Positions 50,004 to 63,706 of a stretch of DNA of 64,000 nt are shown in pieces; position 1 is the first letter of the stretch, and every line of letters starts with the position of its first letter. The notes beneath the pieces are model-generated. The model was not told where the DNA came from. It saw nothing but the letters and a program-made list of their open reading frames with translations, and did no database searches. A program made the position numbers and the translations under genes. This stretch comes from Candidatus Hemicellulosilyticus sp. P3 (GTDB lineage Bacteria > Bacteroidota > Bacteroidia > Bacteroidales > P3): contig LPNH01000005.1 in assembly GCA_001543385.1 (NCBI GenBank), positions 17,680 through 81,679 of the forward strand, given 5' to 3'.

Positions 50004-50630
50004 ATGGCAAAGGAAACACAAATAACAAGCCCCAAGTCCGTTGAAACGCGAGATATTGAGACTCGTTTGATTGTGCTGCGCGGACAGAAAGTGCTTATCG
50101 ACCGTGATGTGGCGGAGTTGTATGGCGTGGAAACAAAGAGGGTAAATGAGGCAGTGAAGAACAACCCCGACAAATTCCCTGAAGGGTACTTCTTTACTCT
50201 GCAAGGTGTTGAAAAGCAGCAACTGGTCGAAAATTTCGACCACTTCAAGACCTTGAAGAACTCCCCCGTCGAGCCTCGCACTTTCACCGAGAAAGGTCTT
50301 TACATGTTAGCCACCATACTGAAAAGCAAGCGTGCTACAGCAGTAACTATTGCCATCATCGAGACCTTTGCCAAAGTACGGGAGCTGAAGCGCGAGTTGG
50401 TGGAGTTGCACAAAGAGACCGACAAGGCGATGCAAGAGAAGAAGATGCACCACTTCGGCGAAGTGCTGACCGACATAGTGATGCCCGACCTCGAAACCTC
50501 CGAGACGGAATCATCGTTAGAAATCAACTTCCTCATCGGCAACATGAAGAAATGCCAGTGGCATTTCGATAGCGGAGCGGAGAACAAAGAACACACCGTA
50601 AAACGAGTAAGAAAAGGCGATAGCAAATGA
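50004..50630 (+). CDS. ORF6N-domain (KilA-N-related DNA-binding) protein
   Basis: IVLRGQKVLIDRDVAELYGVETKRVNEAVKNNPDKFPEGYFFTL is the typical ORF6N pattern. The last 28 codons (from 50544) are an in-frame copy of the leader unit. Confidence 0.8.
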   Translation: MAKETQITSPKSVETRDIETRLIVLRGQKVLIDRDVAELYGVETKRVNEAVKNNPDKFPEGYFFTLQGVEKQQLVENFDHFKTLKNSPVEPRTFTEKGLYMLATILKSKRATAVTIAIIETFAKVRELKRELVELHKETDKAMQEKKMHHFGEVLTDIVMPDLETSETESSLEINFLIGNMKKCQWHFDSGAENKEHTVKRVRKGDSK

Positions 50631-50642
50631 CCGCGCTGGAAC

Positions 50643-50721
50643 GTGAAGAATGTCCTATGGACATTCGATAGCGTAACGGAGAACAAAACGAAATAGGAAA
50701 CGGCTGAAATAATAATACGAA
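50643..50721 (+). repeat. Leader unit copy 2b (54-nt mini-ORF VKNVLWTFDSVTENKTK plus core AAATAGGAAACGGCTGAAATAA)
   Basis: It shows high identity to 49915-49992. The core is at 50691-50712, 9 nt before ATG 50722. Confidence 0.6.
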
Positions 50722-51594
50722 ATGGAGAAAGTTCAGATATTTCAAGATAAGAAAGTCCGCACCCATTGGGATGCCGAGAAGGAGGAATGGTACTTCTCGG
50801 TGGTGGATGTTGTCAGAGTGTTGACGGATTCTGCCAACCCGACAGACTATCTCAAAAAGATGCGCAAACGTGATTCTGAACTTGCTACGTTCATGGGGAC
50901 AAATTGTCCCCAGGTAGATATGATGACGGAGACTGGGAAGCGGAGAAAGACGCTCGCCGCTGACAGTAAGGCTGTTTTCCGCATCATTCAATCAATTCCT
51001 TCGCCCAAAGCCGAGCCATTCAAGCAATGGATGGCGCAGGTGGGAGCTGAACGGCTGGATGAGATAGCCGATCCTGAGAAAGCTATCGCTCGTGGTGCTG
51101 ACTTCTATCGTGCCAAGGGCTACAGCGAAGGGTGGATTAACCAACGGCTACAGTCTATTGAGATGCGCAAGGAGTTGACCGACGAGTGGAAAGCCCGCGA
51201 TATCGATCAGGAACGCGACTATGCCATACTGACTAACGAAATGACCCGCGCATGGAGCGGCCTCACGGTGCGCGACTACAAAGACGTAAAAGGCTTGAGG
51301 AAAGAGAACCTTCGTGACAATATGACCAATCTTGAACTGGTGCTCAACATGCTTGCCGAAGTTACCACCACAGCCATCTCTCGCAGCCGTCAGCCAGAGA
51401 CCTTTGCAGAAAGCCGGAATATAGCCATCGAGGGGGGCAATGTGGCCGGCTCCGCCCGCCGCGAGATTGAGCTGCGCACCGGCCAACCCGTAGTCAGCCC
51501 TCTCAATGCCACCGACAAACTCGCCCTCGACACCTCTATAGAAGACGTAAAACAAATAGAAACAAATGGCCGTGCTGGAAGAAGTGGGAAATAG
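50722..51594 (+). CDS. Bro-N domain protein (DinD/antirepressor-like)
   Basis: The N-terminus is IFQDKKVRTHWDAEKEEWYFSVVDVVRVLTDS (Bro-N). The C-terminal region PSPKAEPFKQWMAQVGAERLDEI...GWINQR resembles DinD-type proteins. Its stop codon is the TAG of leader core copy 3. Confidence 0.78.
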   Translation: MEKVQIFQDKKVRTHWDAEKEEWYFSVVDVVRVLTDSANPTDYLKKMRKRDSELATFMGTNCPQVDMMTETGKRRKTLAADSKAVFRIIQSIPSPKAEPFKQWMAQVGAERLDEIADPEKAIARGADFYRAKGYSEGWINQRLQSIEMRKELTDEWKARDIDQERDYAILTNEMTRAWSGLTVRDYKDVKGLRKENLRDNMTNLELVLNMLAEVTTTAISRSRQPETFAESRNIAIEGGNVAGSARREIELRTGQPVVSPLNATDKLALDTSIEDVKQIETNGRAGRSGK

Positions 51595-51610
51595 GAAACT
51601 GATGAAATAA
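51589..51610 (+). repeat. Leader core copy 3 (AAATAGGAAACTGATGAAATAA)
   Basis: A 20/22 match to the other cores, 17 nt before ATG 51628. The upstream flank GTGCTGGAAGAAGTG resembles GCGCTGGAACGTGAAG at 50631-50646. Confidence 0.55.
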
Positions 51611-51627
51611 ACAAAAATATACAATCT

Positions 51628-52119
51628 ATGAAACTTAAGAAAATCATATTACTTACTTTGATGCCTCTCGTATTTGCATCATGTGTAACTCTTCAACCTG
51701 TTCGTGTAACGAGAAATACATCTTTGGACAATTACACATATTTTTACATAACACCTACTGAAACCAAGACTGGTTCTACAGGAGGTGTATATGGTAATGG
51801 ATATGGCGTTTATGGTTCCTCCCTAAGCAAGAGTACAAATCCAGCAGATATCATTTCCGGCTATCTCATCAAAAGAGGAATGGTTCGATTACCCGAAGTG
51901 AGAAGTGATTTAGCTGACAAAACCATGATTATTAACTATGGAGAAACAGGACGACGCAGTACTGGACTCGGTTACACTATTGAAATCACACTTCAGATAC
52001 TTTCTGCAAAAACAAGTGAAGTCGTTTGTGTTGTAGCAGGCGAAGGTCAAGGTGAAACAGAAGCTGACGATATTAGAATAGCCATTAACCGTTGTCTTGA
52101 AGAAATGTATAAGCAATAA
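51628..52119 (+). CDS. Hypothetical lipoprotein
   Basis: It has a lipoprotein signal with lipobox (LMPLVFASC). No family was recognised. Confidence 0.7.
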   Translation: MKLKKIILLTLMPLVFASCVTLQPVRVTRNTSLDNYTYFYITPTETKTGSTGGVYGNGYGVYGSSLSKSTNPADIISGYLIKRGMVRLPEVRSDLADKTMIINYGETGRRSTGLGYTIEITLQILSAKTSEVVCVVAGEGQGETEADDIRIAINRCLEEMYKQ

Positions 52120-52125
52120 ACAACA

Positions 52126-53175
52126 ATGAGTCTTATTGACGACTACATATTAGAGAGGACATGCACCTATAAAGGAGAAACTTATAAAGTGCGGGATAAT
52201 GGTGCCGTGTACCGTCAACCAAGGCCGGAGGGTAGACTTCGGAAGGATGACGGCAAGTGGACGTTTGGAGAGAAGAACACAACGAATGGATATATGTACA
52301 TTGGTCAACACCGTGTGCATATTATCGTAGCAACAGCTTTCTATGGTGAGAACGATTCCAAAGTTTATGTCGTTGACCATATAGACACCAACCGTTGTAA
52401 TAATCGCGCAGAGAATTTGCGTTGGCTAACTCGTTTGGAAAACGCTTTGCTCAATGAAGACACCTGTAGAAAAATAACATACTTGTGTGGCGGTGACATC
52501 ATGAAGTTCATCAATAACCCATCCTGTTTGCACGACCTTGCCCAAGACCCTGACATCAGTTGGATGCGTACTGTGACAGCAGAAGAGGCAAAGACTGCTT
52601 ATGCCAGAGTGCAATCAATGAGAATCCAACAGCCAAGAAACATTCATTCAGAGCTGCACATAGAAAACGAAGATTTAAAGCGCAAGGAGCAAGCAGAAGC
52701 AATGGAGTGGTACCGCACACAGAACAATTGGCGTTTTACTGCACCAAAGCAACCCATATATAGTACACCTGATCCAGTTTTCACAAAAGCGGCATATCCA
52801 GAGACCGCTTTGCAGAAAGATTGGAAAACTCCAACAGAGTTCATATGTTGTCCCATAGAATCAACAGAAACTCCATTGCAAGATTATTACAACAATCTTA
52901 CAATTGGCAAACTCTTTTCACGGAACAAATACACAGAACATACAGTATTTGATTTTGCACTAATGGACAATGATAAGATATTAATCATTGCAACAAAAGA
53001 CTCAAATCCGAATGCAATAAAACACTTTGGCCTATTGAAGGTATATCATTCCGGCATTCAGTTTATTCATGAAAGCATAAGCACGTACTTTGAAGAAAAT
53101 GGTGTTAGAAAGTATTTCAATATTGAACAAGGGTTAGATTGGAATGGACCTAATAGTATTGACGATTATTGTTAA
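52126..53175 (+). CDS. HNH_3-type endonuclease domain protein with uncharacterised C-terminal extension
   Basis: HRVHIIVATAFYGENDSKVYVVDHIDTNRCNNRAENLRWLTRLEN matches the phage/homing HNH_3 pattern (H..v....VdHid.n..nN...NLrw.t..eN). Confidence 0.75.
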   Translation: MSLIDDYILERTCTYKGETYKVRDNGAVYRQPRPEGRLRKDDGKWTFGEKNTTNGYMYIGQHRVHIIVATAFYGENDSKVYVVDHIDTNRCNNRAENLRWLTRLENALLNEDTCRKITYLCGGDIMKFINNPSCLHDLAQDPDISWMRTVTAEEAKTAYARVQSMRIQQPRNIHSELHIENEDLKRKEQAEAMEWYRTQNNWRFTAPKQPIYSTPDPVFTKAAYPETALQKDWKTPTEFICCPIESTETPLQDYYNNLTIGKLFSRNKYTEHTVFDFALMDNDKILIIATKDSNPNAIKHFGLLKVYHSGIQFIHESISTYFEENGVRKYFNIEQGLDWNGPNSIDDYC

Positions 53176-53198: not shown

Positions 53199-53242
53199 AT
53201 ATTAATCCTTAAACTTTTATTAATTAAACTATTATGGCAAAA
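53199..53242 (+). repeat. Direct repeat DR-R (functional nifJ leader and first three codons)
   Basis: atattaatccttaaacttttattaattaaactattATGgcaaaa is the partner of 49869-49913. Confidence 0.65.
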
Positions 53243-56200
53243 GAAAAAAAGTTTATGACTTGTGACGGCAACTGCGCTGCGGCGCACGTTGCGTACATGT
53301 TCAGCGAGGTAGCAGCTATCTACCCCATCACCCCGTCCAGCCCTATGGCCGAGTATATCGACGAGTGGGCCGCCGGCGGTCGTAAGAACCTCTTCGGCGA
53401 GACCGTGAAGGTCGTCGAGATGCAGAGCGAGGCCGGTGCCGCCGGCGCCGTGCACGGCTCGTTGCAGGCCGGTGCGCTGACCACCACCTACACCGCTTCG
53501 CAGGGTCTGCTGCTGATGATCCCCAACATGTACAAGATCGCCGGCGAGCTGCTGCCCGGCGTGTTCCACGTGAGCGCCCGCGCCCTGGCCGCCCAGGCCC
53601 TCTCCATCTTCGGCGACCACGCCGACGTGATGAGCGCCCGCCAGACCGGCTTCGCCCTGCTGGCCGAGAGCTCGGTGCAGGAGGTGATGGACCTCGCCCC
53701 TGTGGCCCACCTCGCCGCCCTCAGCGGCCGCGTGCCGTTCCTCAACTTCTTCGACGGCTTCCGCACCAGCCACGAGATCCAGAAAATCGAGGCCTGGGAT
53801 ATGGAAGACCTGCGTCCGCTGGTGGACCAGAAGGCCCTGAAGGCTTTCCGCGAGAACGCCCTGAACCCCGAGCACAACGTGACCCGCGGCACCGCCCAGA
53901 ACAGCGATGTCTACTTCCAGACCCGCGAGCTGCAGAACAAGTACTACGACGCCCTGCCCGACATCGTGGCCAAGTATATGGCTGAGATCAGCAAGCTGAC
54001 GGGCCGCCAGTACGCCCCCTTCACCTACTATGGTGCCAAGGATGCCGAGCACGTCATCGTGGCTATGGGTTCGGTGACCGAGACCATCAAGACCGTGGTC
54101 GACTACCTCAACGCCCAGGGCAAGAAGACCGGCTGCGTGACCGTTCACCTGTACCGCCCCTTCAGCGTGAAGCACCTGATGGAGGCTATGCCCAAGAGCC
54201 TGATGGAGCACGTGAAGACCATCACCGTCCTCGACCGCACCAAGGAGCCCGGCGCCAACGGCGACCCGCTGTATATGGACATCGTCGAGGCCTTCAAGGA
54301 CTGCCCCTACAAGCCCACCATTCTCGGCGGCCGCTACGGTCTGTCGAGCAAGGACACCACCCCCGCCCAGATTATCAGCGTCTTCAACAACGCCGAGGGC
54401 GAGAAGAAGAACCAATTCACCATCGGCATCGTGGACGACGTGACCTTCCGCTCGCTGCCCCTGCTGCCCGAAATCAGCATCCTGCCCAAGGGCACCTTCG
54501 AGGCCCGCTTCTACGGCCTCGGCGCCGACGGCACGGTGGGTGCCAACAAGAACAGCATCAAGATTATCGGCGACAACACCGACAAGTACAGCCAGGCCTA
54601 CTTCGACTACGACTCGAAGAAGAGCGGCGGCTACACCTGCTCGCACCTGCGCTTCGGCGACAACCCCCTGCCGGCACCCTACCTGGTCGGCACGCCCGAC
54701 TTCGTGGCCGTCCACGTGCCCAGCTACCTGCGCAAATATGACTGCCTGCGCGGCCTGAAGGACAACGGCACCTTCCTCTACAACAGCCCCTGGACCGTCG
54801 AGGAGACCAAGGCCCAGCTGCCCGACTTCGTGAAGAAGTACCTGGCGCTGCACCACATCACGATGTACATCATCGACGCCACCAAGATTGCCGCTGAAAT
54901 CGGTCTCGGCAACCGCACCAACACCATCCTCCAAAGCGCCTTCTTCAAGATCAGCGAGGTGATTCCCTACGACCTCGCCGTCGAGCAGATGAAGAAATTC
55001 ATCGTCAAGAGCTACGGCCGCAAGGGTGAGGACGTGGTCAACAAGAACTACCAGGCCGTGGACCGCGGCGGCGAGATCGTGAAGATCGACATCCCCGCAG
55101 AGTGGGCCAACCTGCCTTGCAGCACCGACTTCGCCGTCGAGAAACACGAGGGCGACCCCGAGTTCATCGCCAAGGTGATGCGCCCGATGGTGGCCCAGAC
55201 CGGCAACGACCTGCCCGTGTCGGCATTCCTCGGCTACGAGGACGGCACCTTCCCCGCCGGCACCACCGCCTACGAGAAGCGCGGCGTGGCCACCGTCGTC
55301 CCCGAGTGGATCCCCGCCAACTGCATCCAGTGCAACCAGTGCTCGCTGGTGTGCCCCCACGCCGCCATCCGCCCCTGCGTGATGACCGACGAGGAGATGA
55401 AGAATGCCCCCGAGTCGATGAAGGCCATCGACATGAAGATGCCCAAGGAACTGGCCGGTATGCACTTCCGTATGCAGGTCAGCGCTATGGACTGCACCGG
55501 CTGCGGCAACTGCGCCGATGTTTGCCCCGCCAAGGAGAAAGCCCTCGTGATGAAACCCTTCGAGAGCCAGCTCCACGAGGCAGCCAACTGGGACTACGCC
55601 CAGAAGATGGTCACCTACAAGGACAACCTCATCGACAAGAAGGCCAACGTCAAGAACAGCCAGTTCGCACAGCCCCTGTTCGAGTTCAGCGGCGCCTGCG
55701 CCGGTTGCGGCGAGACCCCGTACCTCAAGTGCATCACCCAGCTCTTCGGCGAGCAGATGATGGTGGCCAACGCCACGGGCTGTTCCTCCATCTACGGCGG
55801 CTCGGCTCCTGCCACCCCCTATTGCAAGAACTACCGCAGCGGCTTCGGTCCCGCCTGGGCCAACTCGCTGTTTGAAGACAACGCCGAGTTCGGTCTCGGC
55901 ATGGCCACCGCCACCCGCCAGATGCGCGACCGCGTGGAGCGCATTATGAAGGAAGGCCTCGGCTGCGACTGCTGCAGCGCCGAAATCAAGGCCCTCTTCA
56001 CCGAGTGGATCGAGAACCGCGAGAACACCCTCAAGACCAAGGAAATCGCCGACAAGCTCATCCCGCTGATGGAAGCCTGCGGCTGCGACATCTGCAAGCA
56101 GCTCCTCGAACTCCGCCACAGCCTCGTCAAGAAGAGCCAGTGGATCTTCGGCGGCGACGGCTGGGGCTATGACATCGGATTCGGCGGTCTGGACCACGTG

Positions 56201-56782
56201 CTGGCCAGCGGCGAGGATGTCAACGTCGTCGTCGTCGACACCGAGGTGTACTCCAACACCGGCGGACAGAGCTCGAAGGCCACCCCGGCCGGTGCTGTCG
56301 CCAAGTTCGCCACCAGCGGCAAGAAGATCCGCAAGAAAGACCTCGGTATGATCGCCAAGAGCTACGGCTACGTCTATGTGGCGCAGGTGGCTATGGGCGC
56401 CAGCCAGGCCCAGTACTTCAACGTCATCAAGGAGGCCGAGGCCTACCACGGACCGTCGCTCATCATCTGCTACGCACCCTGCATCAACCACGGTATCAAG
56501 ATCGGTATGGGCCGCACGCAGAACGAGGAGAAGAAGGCCGTCGAGTGCGGCTACTGGCACCTCTGGCACTACAACCCTGCTGAGGAAGAGGCCGGCAAAA
56601 ATGGCTTCCACCTCGACTCGAAGGAGCCCGACTGGAGCAAGTTCCGCGACTTCATTATGGGCGAGGTCCGCTACAACTCGCTGATGAAGACCTTCCCCCA
56701 GGAGGCCGAAGAGCTCTTCGTCGCCACGGAGCGCAACGCCAAGCTGCGCTATGAGGGCTACAAGAAACTCTCCGAGATGTAA
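53234..56782 (+). CDS. nifJ: Pyruvate:ferredoxin (flavodoxin) oxidoreductase
   Basis: It is 1182 aa. It has an N-terminal CDGNCAAAHVAY, two ferredoxin-type clusters (CIQCNQCSLVCPH, CTGCGNCADVCP), and the TPP-binding GGDGWGYDIGFGGLDHV. Confidence 0.98.
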   Translation: MAKEKKFMTCDGNCAAAHVAYMFSEVAAIYPITPSSPMAEYIDEWAAGGRKNLFGETVKVVEMQSEAGAAGAVHGSLQAGALTTTYTASQGLLLMIPNMYKIAGELLPGVFHVSARALAAQALSIFGDHADVMSARQTGFALLAESSVQEVMDLAPVAHLAALSGRVPFLNFFDGFRTSHEIQKIEAWDMEDLRPLVDQKALKAFRENALNPEHNVTRGTAQNSDVYFQTRELQNKYYDALPDIVAKYMAEISKLTGRQYAPFTYYGAKDAEHVIVAMGSVTETIKTVVDYLNAQGKKTGCVTVHLYRPFSVKHLMEAMPKSLMEHVKTITVLDRTKEPGANGDPLYMDIVEAFKDCPYKPTILGGRYGLSSKDTTPAQIISVFNNAEGEKKNQFTIGIVDDVTFRSLPLLPEISILPKGTFEARFYGLGADGTVGANKNSIKIIGDNTDKYSQAYFDYDSKKSGGYTCSHLRFGDNPLPAPYLVGTPDFVAVHVPSYLRKYDCLRGLKDNGTFLYNSPWTVEETKAQLPDFVKKYLALHHITMYIIDATKIAAEIGLGNRTNTILQSAFFKISEVIPYDLAVEQMKKFIVKSYGRKGEDVVNKNYQAVDRGGEIVKIDIPAEWANLPCSTDFAVEKHEGDPEFIAKVMRPMVAQTGNDLPVSAFLGYEDGTFPAGTTAYEKRGVATVVPEWIPANCIQCNQCSLVCPHAAIRPCVMTDEEMKNAPESMKAIDMKMPKELAGMHFRMQVSAMDCTGCGNCADVCPAKEKALVMKPFESQLHEAANWDYAQKMVTYKDNLIDKKANVKNSQFAQPLFEFSGACAGCGETPYLKCITQLFGEQMMVANATGCSSIYGGSAPATPYCKNYRSGFGPAWANSLFEDNAEFGLGMATATRQMRDRVERIMKEGLGCDCCSAEIKALFTEWIENRENTLKTKEIADKLIPLMEACGCDICKQLLELRHSLVKKSQWIFGGDGWGYDIGFGGLDHVLASGEDVNVVVVDTEVYSNTGGQSSKATPAGAVAKFATSGKKIRKKDLGMIAKSYGYVYVAQVAMGASQAQYFNVIKEAEAYHGPSLIICYAPCINHGIKIGMGRTQNEEKKAVECGYWHLWHYNPAEEEAGKNGFHLDSKEPDWSKFRDFIMGEVRYNSLMKTFPQEAEELFVATERNAKLRYEGYKKLSEM

Positions 56783-56803
56783 TCTAATATAGATTGCAAA
56801 CCC

Positions 56804-56835
56804 AAGTTGTGGAGGTCGAGAGGCCTCCACAACTT
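56804..56835 (+). terminator. Terminator hairpin after nifJ
   Basis: A 12-bp stem aagttgtggagg / cctccacaactt lies 22 nt after the stop codon. Confidence 0.6.
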
Positions 56836-56852
56836 CAAAGAAAGAATATAAC

Positions 56853-57935
56853 ATGACACTACTTAATAATAAATGCACCCCAATTCAACTGGATTTGTTC
56901 CAATTGCAAAAACAATATCCAGATACTATTGTCAAGAAAAACGACCTTGATGATAGTTATGATGATTTAGATTTGTCTAAAAATGTATTGGTGTGCAACG
57001 TCAAGAAAGATAATGTAGAACATTTCTTGGACGGCTCTGCCAAGATTTATTATACCGGCTTACGTTTTCCTTCATCTGTAGCTCTCAATAAGCTATACTA
57101 TTTTATCCCCTATATCGGCAAGAAATGCGACCTTGACTACTGCGGCATCCGAGACTTGTACATTATCAAAATTGCCCGTATCGGTTCACGTCGAGAGGGT
57201 GAACTTGATAATGACCCCAACGATTTACGCTTGGTTTTTGAGTTAAAGTTTGTAAAACATTTATTTAATGAATATAAACCAATAAAATTACAGATTTACC
57301 AGACATTCACCGATACAACACTTGAGCAGTTACTAGAAAATCAGAAAACAAAGACCAAACTATTGCCCAATCATTTAACATATATAAGCCTTTTTAGTAG
57401 TGCAGGTGTGGGGTGTTATGGCTTCAAGCAAGAAAACTATTCGTGCATTGCCACCGTTGAACTCATTGAGCGTCGTCTCAACGTACAGAAGTACAATCAT
57501 AAATGCACGTTCAATAGCGGATATATCTGTGGTGACATAACCCTTGCCGAAACACAGAACCGAGTGTTTCAAGAATTACAAATGTGGAGGCGAACCAGTG
57601 GGTTAACCGAGGTTGATGTGCTGATAGCAACGCCACCTTGTCAAGGAATGTCTGTTGCTAACCACAAGAAAGGCGATGAACTAAAACGCAACTCCCTCGT
57701 AGTAGAATCCATTAAACTTATACGAGATATTAACCCGCGTTTTTTTATTTTCGAGAACGTACCTGCTTTTCTTAAATCCATCTGTACAGATATTGATGGT
57801 ATTGACAAACCTATTGGAGAGGCCATAGAATTAGATCTTTTAATTTCCCCCATCCAACTGAAAACCGCCCCCATCCCTAAAATCTTCAAAAAATCAGCTT
57901 TCCACGTGTTACTTTTTCACTGTTTTTGCAACTAA
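56853..57935 (+). pseudogene. Truncated DNA (cytosine-5)-methyltransferase with an uncharacterised ~170-aa N-terminal domain
   Basis: Motif I (LFSSAGVGCYGF), motif IV (TPPCQGMS) and motif VI (FIFENVPAF) are present. Motif VIII, the TRD, and motifs IX/X are absent. The reading frame runs into repeat R1 and stops inside it. Confidence 0.7.
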
Positions 57936-57951
57936 TTATATAGAGGGCGAC
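57863..57951 (+). promoter_or_regulatory. Repeat element R1 (core 57906-57951; TGCAAC-N15-CGAC at 57927-57951)
   Basis: The core GTGTTACTTTTTCACTGTTTTTGCAACTAATTATATAGAGGGCGAC is near-identical to 59554-59600 and 62564-62610. The upstream part AACCGCCCCCATCCCTA matches 59453-59469. Confidence 0.55.
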
Positions 57952-58087
57952 CCTATAGAGGACATCCCCACCACACCGTGATTTTGCACTTGGAGTAATA
58001 ACATTAGACGGAACCAAACAGACAATAATCTAAATGTTTTATTTGAATTATTTAATTAATTAAAATAAACAACAATAAAAAAAGATT

Positions 58088-58684
58088 ATGTCAGACAAAC
58101 CTAAAACAGAAATCAAAGTAGAACGTGTTAATACTACATATAGTTGGTATTGGGCTGTAGTATGGTATGATGCAGACGGCAATGAAATTGGCTACTGCTA
58201 TGGATATGAAAATTCAAAGCGTGAAGCAAAAAAAGAAGCGAAGGAAGCCTCAAAGGGAGACCCTTGTTATCCGGAGCAAAAGAAAGGGGCTGTAAAAGCA
58301 GACCCCACAGTATCGGCGAAAATCCACATCCAGCCGCCTCACATCGATGCAAAAATAATAAACGGTCACTTGGCTTACTTCTCCATGGAGAATCCCCAAG
58401 GGAAAAGAGTCGTGTTCTCCACACGCGACATGTCAGAAAACACTGCATTCTGGGTGTTCGGCATGGATTGCTATGATCCGGAACTTTCGACAAAAGCGGA
58501 ACTTGTTGCTGCAATGCTAAAAATTTGGGGTGTTTATGTACATGGTGAAGAGTCGGAGAAAGAACTGAAAAGAATTCATCAGTTATCTGACGAACACTTC
58601 GCCATTATTGCAGAAAAAAGGTGGAATCATATAACCATTGAATGCTATGAAGACGGCTCGTTTAACTGGTCTTTTATTGATTAG
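58088..58684 (+). CDS. Hypothetical protein (first gene of unit 1)
   Basis: A 198-aa ORF, 137 nt downstream of R1. No recognisable family. Confidence 0.6.
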   Translation: MSDKPKTEIKVERVNTTYSWYWAVVWYDADGNEIGYCYGYENSKREAKKEAKEASKGDPCYPEQKKGAVKADPTVSAKIHIQPPHIDAKIINGHLAYFSMENPQGKRVVFSTRDMSENTAFWVFGMDCYDPELSTKAELVAAMLKIWGVYVHGEESEKELKRIHQLSDEHFAIIAEKRWNHITIECYEDGSFNWSFID

Positions 58685-59240
58685 TTTCATTCTTCTGGGA
58701 TATTCTGGACGGACAGTCGCCCAGAATATCCCCAATATGATTAAATTGGATAAAACCGGGGTTTATATCGACAAAACGGCAGTGTCCATAAGAGGGTGGC
58801 ATGAGTATGTCTGGTACATGTACAAAACCTACGGTATGGATTCCGAACAGTTCCTCTCTACAAAGTGCGACAGCGCAGTTTTTCAGAATCACTACAACCA
58901 TGTTTTCCTATACCCTTATACCCAAGGAATGGGGAAAATTGAAAAGTATGGTTTTTCGAGCGGCGACATAAACTTCATGAACGAAGAATATGGCAAACAC
59001 CCGATGGTCGGCCTGTCGTATGAGCAATGCGTGGCATTTTGCAACTGGCGGACGGAGATGTATAATAAAGTCCACAAGAAGAAACTTCGGTTCCGAATGC
59101 CAACGTCCGAAGAATTGCGTAAAGCGTCAGGGTTACGTCGAGTAAAGATGTCAGACAATGGAAATGGCGAGATTGCTTCAGATGCCACCGTGACGGAACT
59201 AGGAACATTCCGTTGTGTTGCAACATTATTATCGGAATAA
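58647..59240 (+). CDS. Secreted protein with partial FGE-sulfatase/SUMF1-like domain
   Basis: It has a signal peptide (MKTARLTGLLLISFILLGYSG). HPMVGLSYEQCVAFCNWRTEMY...FRMPTSEELRKA resembles the P.v.VsW.dA.aFC.W...yRLPTEaEWe core of SUMF1/EgtB/PvdO-family domains. It overlaps the preceding gene by 38 nt. Confidence 0.45.
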   Translation: MKTARLTGLLLISFILLGYSGRTVAQNIPNMIKLDKTGVYIDKTAVSIRGWHEYVWYMYKTYGMDSEQFLSTKCDSAVFQNHYNHVFLYPYTQGMGKIEKYGFSSGDINFMNEEYGKHPMVGLSYEQCVAFCNWRTEMYNKVHKKKLRFRMPTSEELRKASGLRRVKMSDNGNGEIASDATVTELGTFRCVATLLSE

Positions 59241-59377
59241 GTATATTCAACATTGATTGAAACGGACGCTCGCTTGTCGAGTCGAAACCTCGACAAAAAA
59301 GCATTGAAACAGCCACACATTCAAATCAAGCAGATTATCAACCCCGATACGAAAAAAAACCATCCTCTTCACCATCA

Positions 59378-59411
59378 CGGCAAGCGTCACCCACGTTTGC
59401 CGTTTTTTTTT
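59378..59411 (+). terminator. Rho-independent terminator ending unit 1
   Basis: A 10-bp stem cggcaagcgt/acgtttgccg (one G-U pair) with a 5-nt loop, followed by T9. An A8 run upstream makes it potentially bidirectional. Confidence 0.65.
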
Positions 59412-59452
59412 AAGGAGTCTTTTGTAGGCGCATCGCTCGCTGAGGGCTCACT

Positions 59453-59600
59453 AACCGCCACCATCCCTATACCCCATCCTTGAAAAACACAACACAACGC
59501 AAATACCTAACGATCAGTTATTAAAAAACTTCCGCAAAATATTTTCAATTTCCGTGTTACTTTTTCACTGTTTTTGCAACTAATTATTATAGAGGGCGAT
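59453..59600 (+). promoter_or_regulatory. Repeat element R2 (core 59554-59600; TGCAAC-N16-CGAT at 59575-59600)
   Basis: The core GTGTTACTTTTTCACTGTTTTTGCAACTAATTATTATAGAGGGCGAT lies 61 nt upstream of ATG 59661. Confidence 0.55.
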
Positions 59601-59660
59601 TAAAGTGGTACCATAATAAAAAGCTTCTTTGGAAAAAAATAACACTAAAAAAACAAAAAA

Positions 59661-59876
59661 ATGGAATACGCAATTGAAACTTTCAATGAACAAAACTTGG
59701 GCAGAATTTCAATAACTGCTAGAAAACCATCCGAAATGTCTGAAATAGAAATAATCAATGACATTGACAAATTAGATGGTCAGTGTGTGTCAAAGACACA
59801 CTATAAAGACACCACGGGTGCATATCGTGAAGATATCAAAATTGGCTGTGTGACGATAAAAATCAATAACTATTAA
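59661..59876 (+). CDS. Small protein, candidate RiPP precursor/structural peptide
   Basis: A 71-aa ORF, first gene after R2. Its C-terminal third (CVSKTHYKDTTGAYREDIKIGCV) is rich in Thr/Lys/Asp/Glu and has two Cys. It is immediately followed by a perfect 15-bp hairpin. Confidence 0.5.
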   Translation: MEYAIETFNEQNLGRISITARKPSEMSEIEIINDIDKLDGQCVSKTHYKDTTGAYREDIKIGCVTIKINNY

Positions 59877-59918
59877 ATTGAGGCCAAAGCCTTTGTTGGC
59901 TTTGGCCTCAATTTTTAG
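59877..59918 (+). terminator. Perfect 15-bp hairpin plus T-run (intra-operon attenuator/terminator)
   Basis: attgaggccaaagcc-tttgtt-ggctttggcctcaat-tttt starts 1 nt after the stop of the 71-aa ORF. Confidence 0.7.
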
Positions 59919-59922
59919 TATT

Positions 59923-60570
59923 ATGTTAACACTTTTATTTTTGGGTTCATTCTTTTTTGCCTATACTGAACAAACTGTTTATTCAGCATCAACGGAATAT
60001 GTGTTCTCCATTGAATACCATGACGACGACACAACTTACTCGTCATTTATTAGTATGTGGACGGATTTGAATTCCTGGGAGAATCAGTCTAATCAAAAAA
60101 CATTATATTATCATTATCATGCGGACTCTACAACTATCGGGATATGGCCAATTACAGCTCATGAAACAACAGGTATAATAGAAACATCTGCTAAAATCTG
60201 GTTACACCCTCCCAGAAGTGGGCATCTTGAGATATTAGAATACTTTCCATTTCCGGAAATAAAGAAGGCCACCAATAAAAAAAGATTCTATAGATATTTT
60301 ATTGGGAATTGTGATTTTCTTAACAAATGGGTATGGCTAAAATACAGAATGGTCTTATCCGATGCTATGGAAAAAATATATTGGGGACAAAAAAACATTC
60401 CCGTAAAAACACTACAAGGAAAAGCAAGAACGAAAGAGGGAGAATGGAGCGTACTCTATTATTACAACGAACAAATGGGATTTGTATATTGGCATTATAA
60501 CTATTGTGACAAAATAATAATCAAATTAAAACTGGAAAAAATAATTCCGCATGATCTTAATTCTTTCTGA
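59923..60570 (+). CDS. Hypothetical single-pass membrane protein
   Basis: It has an N-terminal TM segment (MLTLLFLGSFFFAY). The start is moved to ATG 59923 because codons 1-15 of the ORF-track entry (TTG 59878) are the translated hairpin. Confidence 0.6.
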   Translation: MLTLLFLGSFFFAYTEQTVYSASTEYVFSIEYHDDDTTYSSFISMWTDLNSWENQSNQKTLYYHYHADSTTIGIWPITAHETTGIIETSAKIWLHPPRSGHLEILEYFPFPEIKKATNKKRFYRYFIGNCDFLNKWVWLKYRMVLSDAMEKIYWGQKNIPVKTLQGKARTKEGEWSVLYYYNEQMGFVYWHYNYCDKIIIKLKLEKIIPHDLNSF

Positions 60571-61462
60571 GACATCCGATATTCCCACCATCAAATTAGT
60601 CACGCTGATGAAAAGCCATCATGTTGATTACCGCATAATCTACGCAGACGAACTTACGGACGTAAAATGGGATTTATTAAATGATAATTTGAGAGTAAAT
60701 AATATTGACGTTTTGTCCTGTAAATCCGTTTGGTTCCGCAGACCATGTTTCGATTCGTATATTCATTTGGTGAGTGGTGACTTGATTTCTGATTTCACAA
60801 AACATCTAATACAAGAAAAAAAAGTGTTGTTTGACGCAATTCTTTCCAAAATATTTGATGTTTGTCCCAAACATATAGGGAATCCTCTATTTCAAAATAC
60901 AAATAAATTAGATGTTTTACAGAAAGCAAAAAAGTGTGGATTTCAAATTCCAGAAACAATTATTACAACAAACAAGAAAACACTTGCGAATAAACCTTAT
61001 GTTTCCAAACCGATAAGTGAGGTCTTTGTGAGAGATATTGATGGATGTTTATGTTATTCATACACCGAAAACATTAAACTTTCTGAAGTTCAACAGAAAT
61101 TTCATTATGCATTATTCCAAGAAAAAATAAAAAAAGAATTCGAATGTAAGGCGATTTTCTTGAATGGTAAAACATATGCAATGGCCATGGTACCTCAAAC
61201 AGCGGAATCAATGACAGACATTAGAAATTATTCTCTGGGCAGTATGGTAATGTATAGTCCTGTTTCTTTGTCAAAACCCATTTGTATCAAACTCGAAGAA
61301 CTCTTTGGTTGTCTTAATTTAAACTTTGGAATAGTAGACTTAATTATTGATGAAACCACGTGTTATTTTACTGAGATAAATCCAATTGGGCAATTTGACG
61401 ATATTGTTCAATGTGGAAACTATCCTGTTTATGACGAAATATTGAAATATCTTGAATCATGA
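60551..61462 (+). CDS. ATP-grasp ribosomal peptide maturase-like protein
   Basis: MILILSETSD...WFRR..., NKLDVLQKAKKCGFQIPETII, FQEKIKKEFECKAIFLNGKTYAM, DIRNY and LNFGIVDLIIDETTCYFTEINPIGQF follow the pattern of RiPP ATP-grasp ligases (..fGsiDli....yyFlEvNP.GQf). Confidence 0.8.
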   Translation: MILILSETSDIPTIKLVTLMKSHHVDYRIIYADELTDVKWDLLNDNLRVNNIDVLSCKSVWFRRPCFDSYIHLVSGDLISDFTKHLIQEKKVLFDAILSKIFDVCPKHIGNPLFQNTNKLDVLQKAKKCGFQIPETIITTNKKTLANKPYVSKPISEVFVRDIDGCLCYSYTENIKLSEVQQKFHYALFQEKIKKEFECKAIFLNGKTYAMAMVPQTAESMTDIRNYSLGSMVMYSPVSLSKPICIKLEELFGCLNLNFGIVDLIIDETTCYFTEINPIGQFDDIVQCGNYPVYDEILKYLES

Positions 61463-61593
61463 AGAATTTGCTTCTAAAAAAGAATTTATTGAGAGAAAAA
61501 GGAATTCCCATATATATGAAAAAAATGCGAATAATAGAAACCTCATATAAATTTATCCCTACATATTTTTACAAAGCAGTAAAAAAGTACTAA
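61459..61593 (+). CDS. 44-aa small ORF translationally coupled to both neighbours (speculative)
   Basis: Its ATG overlaps the ATP-grasp stop (tcATGA) and its TAA overlaps the next ATG (TAATG). The peptide is MKNLLLKKNLLREKGIPIYMKKMRIIETSYKFIPTYFYKAVKKY. It was not in the ORF track because it is under 60 aa. Confidence 0.3.
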   Translation: MKNLLLKKNLLREKGIPIYMKKMRIIETSYKFIPTYFYKAVKKY

Positions 61594-62462
61594 TGAATTC
61601 CATTCCGTTCACTAACAATAAAATTGTAACTGGAATTAGTCGCAGTATTGTTATTGATTTCAGCAATCATTCATACAGATTTATCAACGAGAAGAATAAT
61701 CCTCCGATAAAGGAAACAGAGTCCGCGTTTAAAGAGTCACAATTTGTTTCTCCGTACAAGATTGAACTAAGAGATTATCTGTCGGGGGCATACAGCTGTA
61801 TAATAGATATTAAACAAGCATTCTTTCATAATGAAACTGACATTTACAAACTTATTTGCAAAATGCCCATTAATTCCGTGCAACTACGTTGGCGTAGCAA
61901 TTACGACATAAAACCATTCTTGGATCGCTTATATAAAGCACATTCGATATTAAACATAGAATTGGTCACGGACTCTTATTCGAATAAAGTTGCAAAATTG
62001 TTATGTAAATTTCCGTTTCACTCCATTACACTTTTGGGGGAGAAAAAAAACGTCTTCAATGAATATATACCAAGACTGAATTATAATCCGTTTGAAGAAA
62101 ATAGACAAACTTTATCGTTTTACTTTAATTTACAATACTATATTGAAGCACATCATACTAACCCCTATTTTTTTCATAAAATCTACAAAGATGACGAGGG
62201 TAATATTTATAATTCACCAGAAACAAAGGAAATAATCGCAAGCGTATGTGAACCGATAGAGGACATTAGGAAGAAAATTTTATTTTATTATGCTCATACA
62301 CCTACGAGGTTTCCCCAAAATAAAATAAACATATGCCGACATTGTGAATTTAGGTATTCTTGTATGGACAATCGAATTCCTGTAAATAAAAAAGGAACAA
62401 TACAATACATAGAAGAGTGTTATTATAATCCATATACTATGCAATGGTTTGGAGGGAAGTAG
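61593..62462 (+). CDS. SPASM-type Cys-rich domain peptide-maturase-like protein lacking a radical-SAM CxxxCxxC motif
   Basis: The C-terminus INICRHCEFRYSCMDNR...ECYYNPYTMQW carries CxxCx5C plus a distal Cys, as in SPASM/twitch domains. The N-terminus (NNKIVTGISRSIVIDFSNHSYRFI) is of the type seen in ATP-grasp-associated SPASM proteins. No CxxxCxxC occurs anywhere. Confidence 0.72.
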   Translation: MNSIPFTNNKIVTGISRSIVIDFSNHSYRFINEKNNPPIKETESAFKESQFVSPYKIELRDYLSGAYSCIIDIKQAFFHNETDIYKLICKMPINSVQLRWRSNYDIKPFLDRLYKAHSILNIELVTDSYSNKVAKLLCKFPFHSITLLGEKKNVFNEYIPRLNYNPFEENRQTLSFYFNLQYYIEAHHTNPYFFHKIYKDDEGNIYNSPETKEIIASVCEPIEDIRKKILFYYAHTPTRFPQNKINICRHCEFRYSCMDNRIPVNKKGTIQYIEECYYNPYTMQWFGGK

Positions 62463-62550
62463 AAGTGTATATGATAATATTGACTTTAACTTTTGTTTGT
62501 TCAAGACTAAATAAAAAAGATAACATTAATATTTCCTTTTATTGACATGT

Positions 62551-62610
62551 ATTTTCAATTTTCGTGTTACTTTTTCGTTGTTTTTGCAACTAATTATTAT
62601 AGTGGGCGAC
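62551..62610 (+). promoter_or_regulatory. Repeat element R3 (core 62564-62610; TGCAAC-N16-CGAC at 62585-62610), upstream of the ECF sigma gene
   Basis: The core GTGTTACTTTTTCGTTGTTTTTGCAACTAATTATTATAGTGGGCGAC lies 124 nt upstream of ATG 62734. Confidence 0.55.
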
Positions 62611-62733
62611 CAAAGATGAGCCAACTATCCGACAGGAGGGCGACCGAAGAGGAGCCAATGTTGAGCAATCCGCCGGGTCGCCGCCCCAAAAACAGAAAGG
62701 ACTAATGATGGACTAAAGGCTGACACAACCTGA

Positions 62734-63240
62734 ATGAAAGTAGACGCGCGCCAACATACTGGATTCCTGAAGATGCTCCGCGAGTGCGAGGGCACCCTGA
62801 TAAAGGTATGTCTCTACTTCACCAACCGCCGCCGCGACGACTTCCGCGACCTCTACCAGGAAATCGCCTGCACCCTCTGGAAGGCGTGGCCTACCTTCCG
62901 CGGCGAAAGCGACCTCAACACATGGGTCACGCGTATCGCTCTCAACGTCTCCGGTCAGGAAATCCGCAAGCGGAAACGGCTGCCGCAGTTCGTGGAACTC
63001 GACGAATCCTTCTACGACATCCTCGCCGACGAAGCCACCGACCTATGCTACCATCGCCTCTACGACCTCATCGACCGCCTCGATGACGACGGCGAACGGA
63101 AACTGCTCTTCCTCTACCTCGACCGAAAACGCCTCCGAGAAATCGCCGAGATAACAGGCTCCACCGAAACAGCAGTGAAACAGAAACTCTACCGCATAAA
63201 ACAAAAGTTAAACGACCTCAAAACAGCAGAAGATGACTAA
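62734..63240 (+). CDS. ECF-type RNA polymerase sigma-70 family factor
   Basis: It has region 2 (DLYQEIACTLWKAWPTFRGESDLNTWVTRIALN) and a region 4 HTH (LREIAEITGSTETAVKQKLYRIKQKL). The length is 168 aa. Confidence 0.9.
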   Translation: MKVDARQHTGFLKMLRECEGTLIKVCLYFTNRRRDDFRDLYQEIACTLWKAWPTFRGESDLNTWVTRIALNVSGQEIRKRKRLPQFVELDESFYDILADEATDLCYHRLYDLIDRLDDDGERKLLFLYLDRKRLREIAEITGSTETAVKQKLYRIKQKLNDLKTAEDD

Positions 63241-63706
63241 TAAATCCATTCAAAAAGTCAATAAAGTGTCGCCCCCTAAAAGGGAGGTGAACACCACTGA
63301 AGAAAAATTAAATAAAATGAATACTACACGACCTCTCAGTTTGCCTGACACGCAGGGGAACGGCCTGCGACCTTGTGGAACTAACACCAAACTAAGCGCA
63401 GCGCAGTGTGGTGAAGAAGACAATAACACAATAACACTATCACACATTGACGCATTCGAGGAAGACGATATCTTCTCTGAACTCCGGTCCCTCTGGGACG
63501 AGCAGACCCGCCACATCGACCACATCCTCGCCACCCACCCCGAGGCTTATCCCGTCCGTCTCAACCTCCGTCACCGCCGCCCCTGGCGTCGCCTCATCAT
63601 GGCCGAATACCTCATCCTCGCCCTCCTCAACATCGCGGCCGGCATCTATACCCTCTTCGCCTTCCCTTCTTTCCCGACTATTACATTTCAAACCAATATT
63701 TCATAA
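63233..63706 (+). CDS. Small membrane protein co-transcribed with the ECF sigma (anti-sigma candidate)
   Basis: Its start overlaps the sigma stop (ATGACTAA). It has a single C-terminal TM helix (LIMAEYLILALLNIAAGIYTLFAF). The true start is uncertain; an internal ATG gives MNTTRPL. Confidence 0.5.
   Translation: MTNKSIQKVNKVSPPKREVNTTEEKLNKMNTTRPLSLPDTQGNGLRPCGTNTKLSAAQCGEEDNNTITLSHIDAFEEDDIFSELRSLWDEQTRHIDHILATHPEAYPVRLNLRHRRPWRRLIMAEYLILALLNIAAGIYTLFAFPSFPTITFQTNIS

Follow-up and report, generated by a model that had tools for sequence, protein, structure and literature searches.

A sequence element of about 60 nt occurs in triplicate, always on the + strand, in a 64,000-nt stretch of the genome of Candidatus Hemicellulosilyticus sp. 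P3 (contig LPNH01000005.1, positions 17,680 to 81,679; hereafter the window). This is the 'bacterium P3' metagenome-assembled genome (MAG), which we take to be a moose-rumen BS11 Bacteroidales genome (compare PMC5322302). One copy precedes the gene for a sigma factor of the extracytoplasmic function (ECF) type and the other two stand at the heads of neighbouring accessory gene cassettes. The element is very probably a conserved cis-regulatory or promoter module of the ECF locus that the cassettes share. Its conservation, position, orientation, fixed spacing and linkage to the cassettes across genomes are observed, whereas a promoter role, the place of the transcription start site (TSS) and recognition by this ECF sigma factor are inferred; the whole reading, one promoter module in three copies that depends on this ECF sigma factor, is on balance the one that we would favour.

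The copies, found both with a repeat finder and by reading the sequence, are as follows.

57896-57951, + strand: R1, with TGTTAC at 57907-57912 and TTGCAAC at 57926-57932; heads cassette A
59540-59599, + strand: R2, with TGTTAC at 59555-59560 and TTGCAAC at 59574-59580; heads the gene for a 71-aa protein and cassette B
62550-62610, + strand: R3, with TGTTAC at 62565-62570 and TTGCAAC at 62584-62590; upstream of the ECF sigma gene

A 34-mer, GTGTTACTTTTTCACTGTTTTTGCAACTAATTAT, is matched perfectly at 57906 and 59554 and with two mismatches at 62564; no fourth match with up to three mismatches occurs in the window, and the chance expectation is zero in 100 shuffles. R2 and R3 are 91% alike across 66 nt (59540-59605 and 62550-62615), beginning at TATTTTCAATTT, and the core of R1 is identical to the ECF-linked copy of another genome (L001; 98% over 53 nt). 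A sequence-only model of the element, built from 17 distinct variants, scores R1 at 60.2 bits (E 4e-17), R2 at 66.6 bits and R3 at 62.9 bits. All genes downstream of the copies are co-oriented with them. The original prediction, made from the window alone, of three near-identical copies in one orientation is confirmed by the sequence, the repeat finder and the 34-mer matches, and its distances of 137, 61 and 124 nt between the end of the core and the first ATG hold.

The same prediction had suggested comparing orthologous loci, and there the element was present upstream of the ECF sigma gene in every ortholog examined. Each contig fetched for an ECF homolog (55-93% amino acid (aa) identity; L numbers denote fetched loci) has one same-strand copy just upstream of the sigma gene, at identities of 93% (L001), 79% (L005/L006), 71-74% (L031), 67% (L015/L023/L026 and L049), 65-69% (L030), 61-63% (L027/L048) and 55% (L047). 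Among GTDB species-representative genomes, scanned with the exact 34-mer only, there is one match, in Bacteroidales RUG156, 105 nt before a 93%-identical ECF ortholog; the P3 genome itself was covered by the window and L002. JGI metagenomes, scanned with a degenerate pattern (GTGTTAC-N11-15-TTGCAAC-N4-10-ATAGNGGGC), yielded four matches, two of them upstream of ECF orthologs confirmed by tblastn, a third cut by the end of its locus with an L001-type leader, and a fourth unrelated by flanking sequence. The degenerate motif had no match in viral contigs, plasmid and phage collections matched only the methyltransferase catalytic motif and neither the element nor the cassettes, and the sequence model run over 306 kb of fetched loci returned the known copies and one weak site. 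Since one copy stands upstream of the ECF ortholog in all fetched relatives and the element is found essentially nowhere else, R3 is, on comparative sequence grounds, the native ECF-upstream element.

This distribution also bears on the idea of a dispersed repeat or miniature inverted-repeat transposable element (MITE) unrelated to regulation, which the original prediction had named as the finding that would overturn it. Three near-identical copies inside 5 kb of AT-rich foreign DNA might suggest such a repeat, but the window holds no further copies, the one species-representative match and the three specific metagenome matches all lie at the ECF locus, and the element has no terminal inverted repeats. 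The scans of the window, species representatives, JGI metagenomes and viral contigs showed no dispersed copies, and the chance that the element is a MITE is close to negligible.

Conservation within the element is concentrated in two blocks and the spacer that separates them. The invariant columns of the 17-variant alignment are TGT.AC, TTT, T.TT, AC and A, the invariant or near-invariant positions across variants read TGT(T/A/C)AC, a T-tract and TTTTGCAAC-TAAT-A, and what stays the same throughout is TGT(T/A/C)AC, then a T-rich spacer fixed at 16 nt, then CAACTAAT. Within a 32-nt core, pairwise identity averages 0.71-0.78, compared with 0.26-0.47 for the flanks. In 17 of 18 variants GTGTTAC and TTGCAAC are 13 nt apart, with one additional nucleotide in L049, and indels are confined to the sequence after CAAC. 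The element has an ECF-like two-block geometry of TGTnAC, 16 nt and CAAC, the middle of the spacer being its most variable stretch. Two-block motifs with 15-18-bp spacers are the standard model of ECF promoters, and small local regulons are common (PMC7776599). We read TGTnAC as the -35 and CAAC(TAAT) as the -10 across the 16-nt spacer, an assignment that would fit all lineages and that predicts a TSS within ~12 nt after CAAC, at roughly 57933-57945, 59581-59593 and 62591-62603.

A different anatomy had originally been proposed, with TGCAAC as an ECF-read -35, a spacer of 15-16 nt, CGA(C/T) as the -10 and a TSS 7-10 nt after CGAY. The string TGCAAC-N15/16-CGA(C/T) is literally present in all three copies, and it resembles the promoters of B. 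subtilis sigma-X, sigma-M and sigma-W. Moreover, ATAGAGGGC(G/A/C)AC is conserved in the lineages of the window, L001, L005, L006, L015, L023, L035 and L049, and the ATG of L049, 13 nt after GGGCGAC, is compatible with this arrangement. As a -35/-10 pair, however, it does not survive comparison. CGAY is replaced by CCAC in L005, CAAC in L006/L035B and TCAC in L035E and is absent from L030 and L047, the sole CGAC lies downstream of the CAAC block and is not universally conserved, and the spacing from TTGCAAC to ATAGAGGGC varies between 6 and 8 nt whereas the upstream spacing is fixed. Furthermore, in L027/L048 and L031 the start codon of the ECF gene occupies the place of the -10, 15 and 13 nt after TTGCAAC, while the upstream part of the element stays conserved. 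The N-termini of these proteins align with the others (M..D.RQ..EFL) and so are translated, which means that the TSS must lie before that point and that TTGCAAC cannot be a -35 there. The TGCAAC/CGAY anatomy is therefore decidedly unlikely. A sigma-54 reading (TGGCAC-N5-TTGCA) was also rejected, as the sequence here (TTTCAC) lacks the GG and orthologs do not keep the CAC.

The genes that follow R3 give the preferred reading its candidate regulator.

62611-62733, + strand: ECF leader, its 3' part near-identical to the leader of L006
62734-63240, + strand: ECF-type sigma factor of 168 aa (Pfam Sigma70_r2 and Sigma70_r4_2; TIGR02937 2.6e-21; 57% GC)
63233-63706, + strand: putative anti-sigma factor, a membrane protein whose start overlaps the ECF stop; truncated in this genome
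63782-63817, + strand: terminator-like hairpin after the truncated anti-sigma gene (14 pairs, 9 GC)

The sigma factor has 81 homologs at E<=1e-20, and a PDB search with it gave nothing at E<=1e-5. A membrane protein of 213-252 aa overlaps the sigma stop codon in all orthologs; the putative anti-sigma factor matches no anti-sigma family in Pfam or NCBIfam. Autoregulation is usual among ECF sigma factors, as is conservation of the target motif upstream of the sigma gene itself (PMC7826278). In the proposed mechanism the ECF sigma factor, once released from the membrane anti-sigma factor, would transcribe its own operon from R3 in positive autoregulation and would simultaneously fire R1 and R2, so that the accessory cassettes would be co-induced with the ECF response. 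This sigma factor is favoured as the reader of the element because autoregulation is usual, the distribution of the element is restricted to the locus, and the upstream block drifts. In the more divergent sigma factors that block becomes TGTAAC (L031), TGTCAC (L047) and TGTCCC (L049), which fits a joint drift of sigma region 4 and its -35, though it is suggestive only. In the ECF leader itself a 21-nt near-duplicate, GGGCGACCrAAGAkGAGCCAA, lies at 62604-62624 and 62638-62658 and is single-copy in orthologs such as L001. The second GGGCGACC of the leader could pair with GGGTCGCC at ~62675; folding of the leader is not significant (z = -1.0).

The three copies sit in a 5.8-kb low-GC stretch (28-46% GC, about 56800-62610). 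R1 and R2 appear to be paralogous copies that head two accessory low-GC cassettes inserted between a pyruvate:ferredoxin oxidoreductase (PFOR) gene and the ECF gene. The features of this island are listed here in order.

53234-56782: PFOR gene, left border of the island (58-69% GC)
56853-57840, + strand: truncated C5 DNA methyltransferase that keeps ~330 N-terminal aa of a ~1000-aa protein of the MTase-Eco57I type
58088-58684, + strand: cassette A gene 1, a 198-aa protein of a 15-member 90% cluster, 88.4% identical to its L033 copy
58647-59240, + strand: cassette A gene 2, a 197-aa exported protein with a partial FGE-sulfatase/GldK-like domain
59377-59412, + strand: intrinsic-terminator-like hairpin closing cassette A, an 11-pair stem with 6 GC pairs, then TTTTTTTTT, with a T9 run
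59661-59876, + strand: the 71-aa protein, first gene after R2, 95.8% identical to its L036 copy
59875-59914, + strand: 17-bp hairpin, then TTTT, between the stop codon of the 71-aa gene and the next ATG at 59923
59878-60570, + strand: membrane-anchored protein of 215-230 aa
60551-61462, + strand: ATP-grasp peptide maturase of the grasp-with-spasm type (TIGR04192 8e-46, full length but under the curated cut-off; Pfam ATP-grasp_3)
61459-61593, + strand: 44-aa open reading frame (ORF), a putative precursor peptide; a called gene in L002-L004
61593-62462, + strand: SPASM-domain partner of the ATP-grasp enzyme (TIGR04193 2e-11, positions 108-332 of 342, below cut-off)

The 197-aa protein matches Pfam PF03781 (8e-08), with a weak match to GldK (TIGR03525), and is 91.9% identical to its L033 copy. 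Both the ATP-grasp and the SPASM enzyme score below the NCBIfam cut-offs, which indicates a divergent grasp-with-spasm variant; the C-terminus of the 44-aa ORF, FIPTY(F/Y)YKAVKKY, is conserved against L036. No informative match was obtained for the 198-aa, 71-aa and 230-aa proteins in PADLOC, Pfam, NCBIfam and PDB searches. In the methyltransferase, Pfam DNA_methylase covers profile positions 2-116 of 324 and PADLOC assigns MTase_II, and the ORF extends by chance through R1 to 57935. Members of its 90% cluster are 999-1000 aa long, with DNA_methylase and Eco57I domains, and are intact in unrelated contexts (L043-L046). The pseudogene ends exactly at the start of the R1 flank, which implies a deletion on arrival of cassette A. 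Before the PFOR gene, low-GC genes at 50004-53175 with ORF6N, Bro-N and HNH_3 domains have the appearance of a phage or mobile-element remnant.

A hairpin search placed terminators before R1 and R2, and likewise before the L033 copy. The original prediction that each element heads a transcription unit holds for R1, from which a clean unit runs to the terminator at 59377-59412, but the unit of R2 is broken by the 17-bp hairpin and T-run at 59875-59914, a candidate terminator or attenuator within it. This structure comes directly after the 71-aa gene, with 9 nt left to the next ATG, so transcription would reach the grasp-with-spasm genes only by read-through or from an internal promoter.

Several points weigh against the ECF reading. 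The block content of canonical ECF promoters, AAC in the -35 and CGT or GTC in the -10, is not found, as the -35 has TAC in most variants, with AAC in L031 only, and the -10 is CAAC/AGAC. The ~20 nt after CAAC, TAATTAT(A/T)ATAGAGGGC, are also well conserved in most lineages, which exceeds the need of a -10 and a TSS and hints at an extra operator or an RNA-level function. The geometry preferred here would leave L027 and L031 with a very short leader, of about 2-7 nt, or with none; in Bacteroidetes only a minority of mRNAs, 5.5%, are leaderless (PMC9723704). R2 may not drive all of cassette B, given the strong hairpin after the 71-aa gene. The circuit may also be atypical in this genome: tblastn homology of the anti-sigma factor to its 238-252-aa orthologs stops at their residue ~102-125 (window ~63690), the remainder being absent from the next 10 kb, and conserved 160-aa and 139-aa genes that follow it in orthologs are likewise absent from the next 10 kb here (L002:10500-11400 region). 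Finally, all copies in the window have TGTTTTTG directly before CAAC, one mismatch from TAnnTTTG, so that a near -7 box lies on the same bases.

That last point leads to the main rival, a housekeeping (Bacteroidetes sigma-A) promoter with an operator. Here T(A/G)TTTTTG before CAAC would be the -7 box, the TSS would fall at about the T/A of CAACTAAT, and GTGTTAC (about -27 to -21) and the region from +1 to +25 would bind some regulator, which the units would share without necessarily sharing the ECF sigma factor. The Bacteroidetes -7 box is TAnnTTTG (PMC7366714), at -12 to -5 (PMC9723704). The original observation that the copies lack this box is strictly true of the window, but a perfect TATTTTTG is found in L005, L024, L030, L035 (both copies) and L036. 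The sigma-A arrangement would also fit orthologs with a proximal ATG, giving leaders of 13-15 nt, and would account for the conservation after CAAC. Against it, the 'TA', which in known promoters is the best-conserved part of the box, is the least conserved here (TG, TA, CA, TC, TT, CT, CC), L047 lacks the final G (TTTTTC), TTTG becomes GTTG in L006, and L027, L031, L047 and L049 have at least two mismatches. A -33 TTTG is absent at 19-21 nt before the -7-like box, where the sequence is (A/T)TTTCA(A/T)TTT, and the invariant GTGTTAC lies at a place without known sigma-A contact. A sigma-A promoter is thus possible but improbable. The conserved ~20 nt after CAAC, accounted for by neither the ECF nor the sigma-A model as such, may be an operator.

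The element could instead be transcribed, acting as a 5'-UTR or RNA-level signal or as a tiny leader ORF with the promoter further upstream. In L027 and L031 it lies right against the start codon, its AT-richness and lack of structure recall Bacteroidetes translation-initiation regions, and one of its frames reads (V/M)LLFHCFCN*. These points are outweighed by others, which make a transcribed element very unlikely: Rfam gave no match at gathering thresholds over the whole window, none of the copies showed a signal when folded as RNA (z +0.1 to +0.4), and the ATG is 60-150 nt away from the element in most lineages, with terminators just upstream of R2 and the L033 copy. The variable positions are contiguous and lack 3-nt periodicity, and the peptide changes (H/P/R/S) and loses its stop in L006. 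For these reasons (a contiguous, non-synonymous variable block and the lost stop) the leader peptide VLLFHCFCN* was rejected.

Comparison with other genomes supports the link between the element and the cassettes. L005 represents an empty site: after the 3' end of the PFOR gene (83% identical to 56527-56781) come ~640 nt that contain a single element, and then the ECF gene. L033/L034 contain cassette A with 92% identity over the stretch that starts at 57898, 8 nt ahead of GTGTTAC, and ends with the stop codon at 59240, and in L033 the ECF-upstream sequence is L001-like up to GGGCGACC and then switches abruptly to the cassette A leader. Cassette B is found in L035-L042, with an element and an R2-type leader ahead of the 71-aa gene and another copy of the element ahead of the ECF gene. 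Each cassette has its own leader and its own diverged copy of the element in independent metagenomes. This 5' link, kept across genomes even though the elements diverged, points to function and not to a recent accident in one genome. The local regulon first proposed is plausible and gains strength from these comparisons: the extra copies stand consistently at the 5' ends of the same cassettes, as a shared promoter predicts. Its -35/-10 assignment has to be replaced. Between the window and L036 protein identity is 67.6% for the ECF sigma factor, 71.6% for the ATP-grasp enzyme, 56.1% for its SPASM partner and 95.8% for the 71-aa protein, and the non-coding leader before the 71-aa gene is highly similar. 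The 71-aa gene may be a recently exchanged module or may encode a highly constrained small protein, possibly a precursor or regulator of the cluster, which resembles those for ribosomally synthesised and post-translationally modified peptides (RiPPs).

How the copies arose may be judged from their flanks.

57838-57895, + strand: R1 upstream flank, C-rich, including AACCGCCCCCATCCCTA; homologous to flanks before element copies elsewhere
59450-59539, + strand: R2 upstream flank, AACCGCCACCATCCC ... ACCTAACGATCAG ...; homologous to the native ECF-upstream region of L005/L006

The R1 flank and element (57838-57952) match L036 581-696 at 77.5% in blastn, and 59500-59597 matches L005 714-813 (88%) and L006 5323-5420 (83%), so that R2 carries ~50-100 nt of extra 'native' ECF-upstream sequence. 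The extension AACCGCC(C/A)CCATCCCTA that R1 and R2 had been said to share is present at 57864-57880 and 59453-59469. The upstream flanks of other copies (L001:6790-6925, L033:7690-7820, L036:540-600) have in common a C-rich tract of CCATCC/CCGCC repeats, as well as a small, perfectly paired hairpin of sequence GTCGCGAT-TCA-ATCGCGAC with an A-run after it, which may be an insulator or a minus-strand terminator.

Such flanks raise the question of whether the repeats are mainly recombination sites or scars of Campbell-type insertion within the ~60-nt element, the promoter activity of R1 and R2 being incidental. Cassettes would then come and go through homologous recombination or through the action of an unlinked recombinase. 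Between copies, homology begins and breaks off sharply at the borders of the element (R2 and R3 resemble each other over 62550-62615 only), and the L033 switch comes right after GGGCGACC. R2 retains the native upstream flank and R3 the native leader, while the R1 upstream flank resembles the flanks of other copies; this mosaic of flanks and leaders is expected from single-crossover insertion or exchange within the element. The direct repeats bound discrete cassettes, the cassettes are patchily distributed among close ECF relatives, L005 is an empty site, and L005 and L006 have identical sigma factors yet different element and leader variants. On the other hand, no integrase or recombinase gene is among the called genes of L002 or of the window at 43.6-53.2 kb (flanking 13 kb), the element has no hairpin or palindrome (the repeat finder gave no inverted repeats), and its orientation is always that of the downstream genes. 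It is equally conserved in single-copy genomes without a cassette, so the primary constraint is not recombination. Recombination as the main role is quite unlikely, and exchange at the element is likely a by-product of sequence identity, or a secondary role at most.

A broader form of the idea is that the ECF promoter doubles as a docking site, so that modules of promoter copy, leader and genes are exchanged among rumen Bacteroidales and stacked by recombination within the ~60-nt promoter, as an integrase-free, integron-like array. We regard this as unlikely. Were it true, each acquired cassette would be automatically wired into the ECF stress response, and the element, leader and 71-aa gene (96% protein identity, where the sigma factors have 68%) would form one recently exchanged module.

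The surroundings offer some further observations. Each lineage has different DNA just before the ECF element, with an abundance of defence or mobile genes (L001:660-6582, L033:1-7529, L015:2361-7679, L006:3832-4764, L031:4124-5824), examples being RADAR-like RdrA/RdrB (PADLOC), KwaB with a 1869-aa AAA_16 protein, AbiEi with a 1482-aa protein, and ISL3 and DDE transposases. The region resembles a hotspot for variable islands of defence and mobile DNA. The weak site returned by the sequence model, GTCAGTTTTCTTTGATTTGTGCAACTAATATAATATAAGC, is at L002:11332-11369 (window 64065-64102, just beyond the window end; 16 bits, E 0.002). It retains the GCAACTAAT half with a poor upstream block, and is followed by an ORF of 111 aa, itself doubtful, and by a lipoprotein of 292 aa whose C-terminus is glycine-rich. 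RNA-guided transcription by dCas12f-sigmaE (PMC12259090) was considered and rejected, as there is no 400-600-aa Cas12f-like ORF and an anti-sigma-like membrane protein and small lipoproteins adjoin.

Taken together, this is probably a known kind of regulation, an autoregulated ECF promoter with a small local regulon, in an unusually modular, cassette-borne layout. The known logic of ECF regulation would be unchanged, and the value of the case lies in a well-documented example and a testable regulon, not in a new principle. ECF promoter motifs of Bacteroidetes are almost entirely unknown; a transcriptome paper of 2020 on B. thetaiotaomicron had no ECF promoter motif known for that species (PMC7366714). 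The element offers a sharply bounded candidate for one uncharacterised Bacteroidales ECF family, and the comparative data lead to definite predicted TSS positions by which three models can be told apart. Accessory genes, a RiPP-like grasp-with-spasm cluster among them, could join a resident signalling circuit through a promoter copy that they carry.

Among known systems, the autoregulated ECF promoters (E. coli rpoE P2; B. subtilis sigW/sigX/sigM; PMC7826278, PMC7776599) share with this locus a conserved two-block motif with a fixed spacer of ~16 nt directly before a sigma/anti-sigma operon, and the same motif before neighbouring genes; conservation upstream of orthologs is the standard route to predicting them. 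The blocks here are atypical in comparison, TGTTAC ... CAAC and not GGAAC ... CGT, conservation continues ~20 nt past the -10, and the extra sites, instead of having evolved independently, duplicate the whole ~60-nt module as near-identical paralogs borne on horizontally acquired cassettes. Bacteroidetes sigma-A promoters (-33 TTTG / -7 TAnnTTTG; PMC7366714, PMC9723704) share with the element a T-rich octamer that ends in TTTG and is plausibly placed relative to the start codons, but the TA of the element is not conserved, a -33 box is absent and GTGTTAC falls outside the known contacts. The ECF-type SM6 promoters of Flavobacterium psychrophilum (PMC9723704) are likewise a Bacteroidetes alternative-sigma motif inferred partly from a sigma/anti-sigma operon. 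They are linked to envelope and type IX secretion system (T9SS) genes, and here T9SS-cargo genes follow the ECF operon in L015 and L036; SM6 has a CGT -10 box, whereas the universally conserved part of the element has none. Integron cassettes and att-flanked tandem islands resemble this locus in the promoter-proximal stacking of small cassettes of foreign composition, the direct repeats, the sharp boundaries and the empty site in a relative. In contrast to integrons, there is here no integrase and no attC-like hairpin, each cassette has its own copy of the predicted promoter instead of a single Pc, and the repeat is the conserved, probable promoter of a resident core gene.

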